Positions 4,972 to 5,071 of a DNA stretch of 64,000 nucleotides are shown piece after piece. Source of the stretch: Escherichia coli (lineage in GTDB: Bacteria; Pseudomonadota; Gammaproteobacteria; Enterobacterales; Enterobacteriaceae); NCBI RefSeq assembly GCF_009931435.1, contig NZ_CP043414.1; one strand, written 5' to 3'. Under the pieces are notes generated by a model. That model was not told the origin of the DNA. It did no database searches and saw only the letters and a program-made list of their open reading frames with translations. How positions within the stretch are numbered: position 1 is the stretch's first letter; the number at the start of each line of letters is the position of its first letter. Made by a program: the position numbers and the translations under genes.

Positions 4972-5071
4972 TGCCGGATGCGGCGTAAACGCCTTATCCG
5001 GCCTACAAAGTATTGTGAATTCAAAAAATTGCGATTCCCTTGTAGGCCTGATAAGCGTAGCGCATCAGGCA
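4972..5071. repeat. REP/BIME element: two inverted REP units (gccggatgcggcgtaaacgccttatccggcctac ... gtaggcctgataagcgtagcgcatcaggc)
   Basis: Canonical enterobacterial REP palindromes read directly in the pepB-sseB intergenic region. Confidence 0.8.

Follow-up and report, generated by a model that had tools for sequence, protein, structure and literature searches.

In E. coli, REP units are recognized by a GTAG tetranucleotide at the foot of a hairpin (CTAC on the complement) together with a non-complementary position in the stem, as described in PMC3333891. The BIMEs that they form have been divided into three classes (PMC3333891, PMC2817692, PMC1187871): BIME-1, with one Y and one Z1 unit in a single copy and a long conserved L linker that often contains an IHF site; BIME-2, repeated in tandem, with Y and Z2 units, an S linker that is short and strong binding of gyrase; and a third class of atypical chimeras that combine the first two. 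The L linker of BIME-1 is described as binding IHF (PMC3333891, PMC2817692), and the class also goes by the names RIB ("reiterative IHF BIME") and RIP ("repetitive IHF-binding palindromic element"). The flanks of rayT (yafM) in K-12 are given as BIME-2 made of Y and Z2 (PMC2817692, PMC3333891).

According to the family literature, REP hairpins keep 3′ exonucleases from degrading the mRNA upstream, and Rho-dependent attenuation is another of their possible effects. Where a REP lies no more than 15 nt from a stop codon, ribosomes are stalled and the upstream gene is translated less, as summarized in PMC12306157. REPs are also described as targets of insertion sequences and as substrates of RAYT, a transposase for which both the GTAG foot and the mismatch in the stem are necessary (PMC3333891, PMC2817692).

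Here we describe an element in the gap between pepB and sseB, found in a 64-kb stretch of E. coli DNA, the whole of which we call the window. We are highly confident that this element is a single-copy BIME-1 (RIB/RIP), in which a Y and a Z1 unit stand tail to tail round a 35-nt L linker. Like BIME-1 in general, it has a single inverse pair of Y and Z1 and a conserved linker with an IHF-type site, and it is extragenic, lying right after the 3′ end of a gene; unlike most of the BIME-1 copies that we sampled, it is without the outer A and B flanks and its linker is relatively diverged. With BIME-2 it has in common the REP superfamily, the Y unit and the GTAG/CTAC feet, whereas BIME-2 differs in its long Z2, its short head-to-head S linkers, its variable tandem arrays and its strong gyrase binding. 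The REPINs of Pseudomonas resemble it in that two inverted REPs and their spacer can fold into one long hairpin, and in a presumed non-autonomous mobility that relies on a single-copy RAYT; however, REPINs belong to another REP sequence family, and an IHF site in the linker is a feature of E. coli BIME-1. BIME-1 is a long-known class of element, and its representative at pepB-sseB is an ordinary one.

Two inverted REP units in the pepB-sseB gap

Gene names at the locus come from Pfam and from two RefSeq annotations, that of K-12 and that of an E. coli genome with 100% identity. The pepB and sseB genes are co-oriented and separated by a gap of 142 nt, and the BIME sits inside this gap, directly 3′ of the pepB stop codon (TAA, 4962–4964). 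The features of the locus are as follows.

3681–4964, + strand: pepB (aminopeptidase B) coding sequence; ORF list, RefSeq annotation (identical genome, K-12), Pfam Peptidase_M17 with E = 5e-104
4973–5006, + strand: Y-type REP in iREP orientation; a palindrome that matches the Y consensus at 33 of 34 positions and is identical in K-12
5007–5041, no strand assigned: L linker of 35 nt, sequence AAAGTATTGTGAATTCAAAAAATTGCGATTCCCTT; assigned by family length and PWM score
5019–5031, + strand: IHF-consensus-like site ATTCAAAAAATTG; pattern scan, 12 of 13 positions matching WATCAANNNNTTR
5042–5070, − strand: Z1-type REP (short Z); 29 of 29 positions matching GCCTGATGCGCTACGCTTATCAGGCCTAC, 0 errors
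5107–5883, + strand: sseB coding sequence, with its ATG at 5107; ORF list, RefSeq, Pfam SseB with E = 1e-23 and SseB_C with E = 6e-30

The initial annotation had proposed a pair of inverted REP units downstream of pepB, and the two sequences that it quoted occur exactly where it placed them, tgccggatgcggcgtaaacgccttatccggcctaca on the + strand at 4972–5007 and tgtaggcctgataagcgtagcgcatcaggc at 5041–5070, with 33 bases between them (5008–5040); the end that it gave to the element, 5071, is one base past 5070. Taking as a REP an imperfect palindrome of 30–40 nt that fits one of the type consensi Y, Z1 or Z2, we found its proposal borne out by the consensus match, the CTAC and GTAG feet, the extragenic site, the copy number and a linker of the family type. 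The stem of the Y hairpin (4973–5002) starts 8 nt past the pepB stop codon and consists of 8 pairs, a C·U mismatch and 4 further pairs closed by the loop UAAA, with the CTAC foot at 5003–5006. In Z1, read on the + strand, the GTAG foot (5042–5045) precedes the hairpin (5046–5070), so that the two units are set tail to tail (CTAC...GTAG) with the linker between them. Each stem holds an internal mismatch, so that palindrome, foot and mismatch are present in both units. An inverted-repeat search recovered the internal palindrome of the first unit (4970–4986 with 4989–5005) as well as pairing between the units (4993–5021 with 5027–5055, and 4972–4982 with 5061–5071).

A match of all 29 positions of the Z1 unit cannot be a product of chance; for the related Stern consensus with its fixed loop, 0.00 hits were expected from 100 shuffles of the window. 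The search with REP consensus sequences that had been suggested as a check gave a divided result: the type-specific consensi match both units, but the classical Stern pattern misses both, because it has a fixed 5-nt loop and the loops of Y and Z1 are shorter. The sole match of that pattern in the window was a REP at 56698–56734, which brings the REP units in the 64 kb to three. This solitary unit, GCCGGATACGACGCTTGCCGCGTCTTATCCGGCCTAC on the − strand, combines Y feet with a long, Z2-like loop and is flanked by convergent ORFs at 55913–56659 (+) and 56765–57124 (−). When a 291-nt query containing the pepB-sseB element was searched against E. coli genomes, it matched at a median of at least 40 places per genome, and the element thus has both the high copy number and the extragenic position of a REP sequence. 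This rules out that its two units are confined to the pepB-sseB site. In the RefSeq annotation of K-12, no REP feature is listed at the pepB-sseB locus or at rayT.

We also noted that the isc-pepB-sseB-sseA region of the window (1–7700) is ∼95 to 96.5% identical to K-12 over 7.7 kb, and that the pepB-sseB segment is 100% identical to just 2 of 5,426 genomes, most E. coli falling at 90 to 95%. The source may be a divergent E. coli lineage, or the 1–7700 segment may have come by recombination.

The L linker and its IHF-like site

The linker was compared with a family obtained by scanning one genome per species for CTTATCCGGCCTAC, 25 to 45 nt, and GTAGGCCTGATAAGCG. This sample held at least 120 stretches with at least 149 Y..Z1 pairs, almost all from Enterobacteriaceae, the genera being Escherichia (coli, albertii and sp.), Citrobacter, Pseudocitrobacter, Kosakonia, Pluralibacter, Superficieibacter and Salmonella (arizonae). 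Among the 149 pairs listed, the linker was most often 35 nt long (83 pairs), followed by 34 nt (33 pairs). The sampled pairs gave the linker consensus AAAATCGTGCAAATTCAATATATTGCAGAAACCTT, with a core, AATTCAATATATTGCA, that is conserved at 70 to 99%; the linker of the window agrees with this consensus at 23 of 35 positions. A PWM built from 76 linkers of other genomes scored the window linker at 24.0 bits, compared with −38.8 ± 11.9 bits for shuffled sequences (maximum, 3.1), and no other 35-mer in the 64-kb window exceeded 10 bits. The score places it among the more diverged linkers, ninth lowest of 76 (8 of 76 lie below it; family median, 41.7 bits). By its sequence, it belongs to the conserved L family of BIME-1, within which it has diverged somewhat.

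The IHF-like site at 5019–5031 falls in the core, where the L linker is most conserved, and is a probable IHF site. Since the linker is diverged and the core in the window, AATTCAAAAAATTGCG, departs from the family core, the affinity for IHF at pepB-sseB may be reduced. In the literature on IHF ChIP at REP elements, we found nothing specific to the pepB-sseB locus.

Outer flanks

In the sampled Y-L-Z1 copies (n = 119), the pair is commonly embedded in further conserved sequence, with a flank TCAGATTGCTGACAAAGTGCGCTTTGTTCA before Y scoring above 10 bits in 74% of copies and a flank AATTTTGCGTTTGTCATCAGTCTCAGGCCG after Z1 doing so in 61%. These outer flanks are presumably the A and B motifs of Gilson and colleagues. 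Each is ∼30 nt long, and the two are in part inverted repeats of each other, which gives a MITE-like element of ∼140 to 150 bp. The published size of BIME-1, ∼140 bp according to PMC1187871, fits with the flanks included. At pepB-sseB, neither flank was found in the regions searched (4940–4972 and 5071–5106), where the scores, −24.0 bits for A and −7.5 bits for B, are at the random level; where the flank next to Y would lie, there is pepB coding sequence. The same absence of both flanks was seen in 15 of the 119 sampled copies. The A and B flanks are thus frequent but non-universal, and their absence does not disqualify the element as a BIME-1.

Predicted RNA structure, promoters and terminators

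RNA of the region 4965–5080 was predicted to fold with −43.6 kcal/mol, compared with −28.8 ± 3.4 kcal/mol for shuffled sequences (z = −4.3; 0 of 200 shuffles as good). The minimum-free-energy structure is one long hairpin between the units, in which the 3′ arm of Y pairs with the 5′ part of Z1 by way of the partly palindromic linker. When formed separately on RNA of the pepB sense, the Y and Z1 hairpins are predicted at −21.3 and −12.9 kcal/mol, or −34.2 kcal/mol for the two REP hairpins against −43.6 kcal/mol for the long one. Which of these conformations the RNA takes in vivo is uncertain, the long hairpin being thermodynamically preferred in the prediction. A scan of 4965–5106 for intrinsic terminators (hairpin plus T-run) found none, the only hits lying inside pepB at 4807–4827 and at the level of shuffled sequence, and a scan of the pepB-sseB gap for sigma-70 promoters found no good one. 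BIME-1 is characterized by a position at the 3′ end of a transcription unit; the present copy follows the pepB stop codon, and the co-oriented sseB comes next.

Weighing of alternative readings

We considered whether the element is instead a BIME-2 or an atypical BIME, able to bind gyrase and to be amplified in tandem. The initial annotation had named binding of both gyrase and IHF, and the first of these would speak for such a reading; IHF indeed goes with the BIME-1 class, but it is BIME-2 and atypical BIMEs to which strong binding of gyrase is ascribed (PMC2817692, PMC3333891), and at pepB-sseB gyrase binding is not expected to be prominent. Z1 and Z2 were told apart empirically, by way of the rayT flanks of K-12, and Z1 was assigned by exclusion. 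In these flanks, Y units alternate with a long Z unit, tgcctgatgcgacgctggcgcgtcttatcatgcctac (also given as TGCCTGATGCGACGCTGGCGCGTCTTATCATGCCTAC), and the heads are joined by ∼13 nt; since the rayT flanks are built of Y and Z2, the long Z corresponds to Z2 and the short one at pepB-sseB to Z1. The pepB-sseB units differ from this arrangement in being joined tail to tail over a 35-nt linker of the L family and in forming a single inverse pair without tandem copies, and the number of BIME copies at the site was constant in the sampled genomes, where the sole length variant was the 24-bp allele described below. We therefore regard a BIME-2 or atypical BIME as very improbable, and the anatomy and family membership of the element, as directly observed, are those of BIME-1. 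That the element is mainly a transcription terminator or attenuator, which ends the pepB transcript and insulates sseB while its kinship to REPs is incidental, has a minor but real chance of being right. Its hairpins are strong, it sits right after a stop codon and between co-oriented genes, no good sigma-70 promoter separates it from sseB, and Rho-dependent attenuation of transcription by BIMEs has been reported (cited in PMC2817692 and PMC12306157). However, neither hairpin is followed by a T-run, which excludes an intrinsic terminator and fits termination of the REP type instead, and full termination would silence an sseB that had no promoter of its own. Termination or attenuation is thus a sub-function compatible with the identity of the element as a BIME-1, not a rival identity.

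The locus could also be read as coding, with the element giving rise to a small RNA or a small protein and the ORFs at 4953–5294 (−) and 5015–5323 (+) being real genes. Both ORFs exist, and at least one RefSeq annotation has a "hypothetical protein" near the site. They had been called antisense artifacts of the element, of which the existence of both and the lack of a Pfam family for either stand, but only one of them is antisense and both lie mostly over sseB: the − strand ORF overlaps it over 188 nt, and the ORF at 5015–5323 runs in the sense direction, in another frame than sseB, with an overlap of 217 nt. Because most of both overlaps the real sseB gene, the best reading of the two ORFs is that they are shadows of this overlap, reach into the BIME and are not its products. 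Against the coding reading there is further the fact that the sequence is a dispersed repeat, that sseB, which both ORFs overlap out of frame or antisense, is well supported, and that Rfam has no family over the element or anywhere in 4965–5106. We consequently give that reading next to no credence and retain the BIME-1 assignment. Only two Rfam families matched in the window, ryfA at 5882–6185 (−; 308 bits), where the identical genome has the small toxin TimP, convergent with sseB, and the small RNA sroE at 19040–19131 (+; 110 bits); ryfA is likewise a small RNA.

Conservation of the element and a 24-bp length variant

The 291-nt query across the site was covered to at least 80% in 5,424 of 5,426 complete E. 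coli genomes. The BIME-1 at pepB-sseB is thus fixed in E. coli and not polymorphic for presence or absence, a near-fixation that is directly observed, and recent mobility is not evident at this locus. Between K-12 and the window, Y and Z1 are identical, the linker differs by ∼5 substitutions and one 1-nt indel, and two bases shortly past Z1 differ. In an out-group, Kosakonia cowanii, the orthologous gap between pepB and sseB (6770–6968 of the retrieved locus, L031) contains three REP-like units, whose sequence type is related to that of E. coli but not the same and whose arrangement is different. Since REP-like units are found in the Kosakonia gap also, REP occupancy downstream of pepB is either ancient or recurrent. 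Exact Y-L-Z1 matches were also seen on very short contigs labeled Desulfosporosinus, Oceanobacillus and Collinsella; these non-enterobacterial matches are most likely enterobacterial contamination of the assemblies.

A shorter form of the element was associated with a 10-bp direct repeat, whose two copies are located as follows.

4957–4966, + strand: direct repeat CGGCGTAAAC, 10 bp, copy 1; spans the pepB stop codon
4981–4990, + strand: direct repeat CGGCGTAAAC, 10 bp, copy 2; lies in the upper stem and loop of Y

In the short allele, the 24 bp from one copy of CGGCGTAAAC to the next (within 4957–4990) are absent, and with them the 5′ arm of Y. It was seen in three strains, 3059, FDAARGOS_1286 and SCPM-O-B-8794; at the junction, pepB ...AACGGCGTAAAC joins directly to GCCTTATCCGGCCTAC, and the pepB stop codon falls inside the remnant of Y. 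A query with the short allele returned 454 records at ≥95% identity, corresponding to ∼8% of complete E. coli genomes; among the matches listed, those in the ≥95% range span exactly 220 nt, the length of the query, and those of the long allele 243 to 244 nt. The long allele, which the window carries, accounts for ∼92% of E. coli. The simplest explanation of the short allele, from the comparison within E. coli alleles, is a slippage deletion between the direct repeats. Because ∼8% of genomes are without the 5′ arm of Y, Y is not required as a complete hairpin. The Y loop of the window reads TAAAC where the consensus has TGAAC, a departure that lies inside the 10-bp repeat. One could go further and suppose that the 24-bp polymorphism is a natural on/off variant of REP control over PepB translation or pepB mRNA stability, and that the repeat stems from a past exchange between the 3′ end of the gene and the REP and is not a coincidence, but we hold this to be improbable.

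Discussion

For function, we infer from the family to the BIME-1 at pepB-sseB, and what follows is conditional on the element behaving as its relatives are described to do. Going by the family literature, it would be transcribed as part of the 3′ region of pepB, where the G+C-rich hairpins would block 3′-to-5′ exonucleases and in this way stabilize the upstream pepB message. A further, Rho-dependent effect of the hairpins may be that less transcription reads through into sseB. Since only 8 nt separate the Y hairpin from the pepB stop codon, it falls in the class of hairpins (≤15 nt) at which terminating ribosomes would stall and by which translation of the gene upstream would be lowered. The example of this class is nrdAB (Liang, Rudd and Deutscher 2015, as given in PMC12306157), which the pepB element resembles in having its hairpin within the 15-nt limit. 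As double-stranded DNA, the L linker would be a binding site for IHF, to judge from the family. The spread of the family is attributed to the REP-associated tyrosine transposase (RAYT, TnpA-REP), which would read the GTAG foot and the mismatch in the stem, and elements of the REP family may in turn be targets for certain insertion sequences.

The importance of the element goes little beyond correct annotation. With a BIME-1 recognized at this site, the strong secondary structure between pepB and sseB is explained, as are the hits to repeats and the spurious ORFs called there. For work on the expression of pepB and sseB, it flags a probable IHF site and a hairpin that may stabilize mRNA or modulate translation. 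In the 24-bp allele, nature would supply a small comparison, already at hand, that bears on the published claim of lowered translation for genes with a REP close behind their stop codon.
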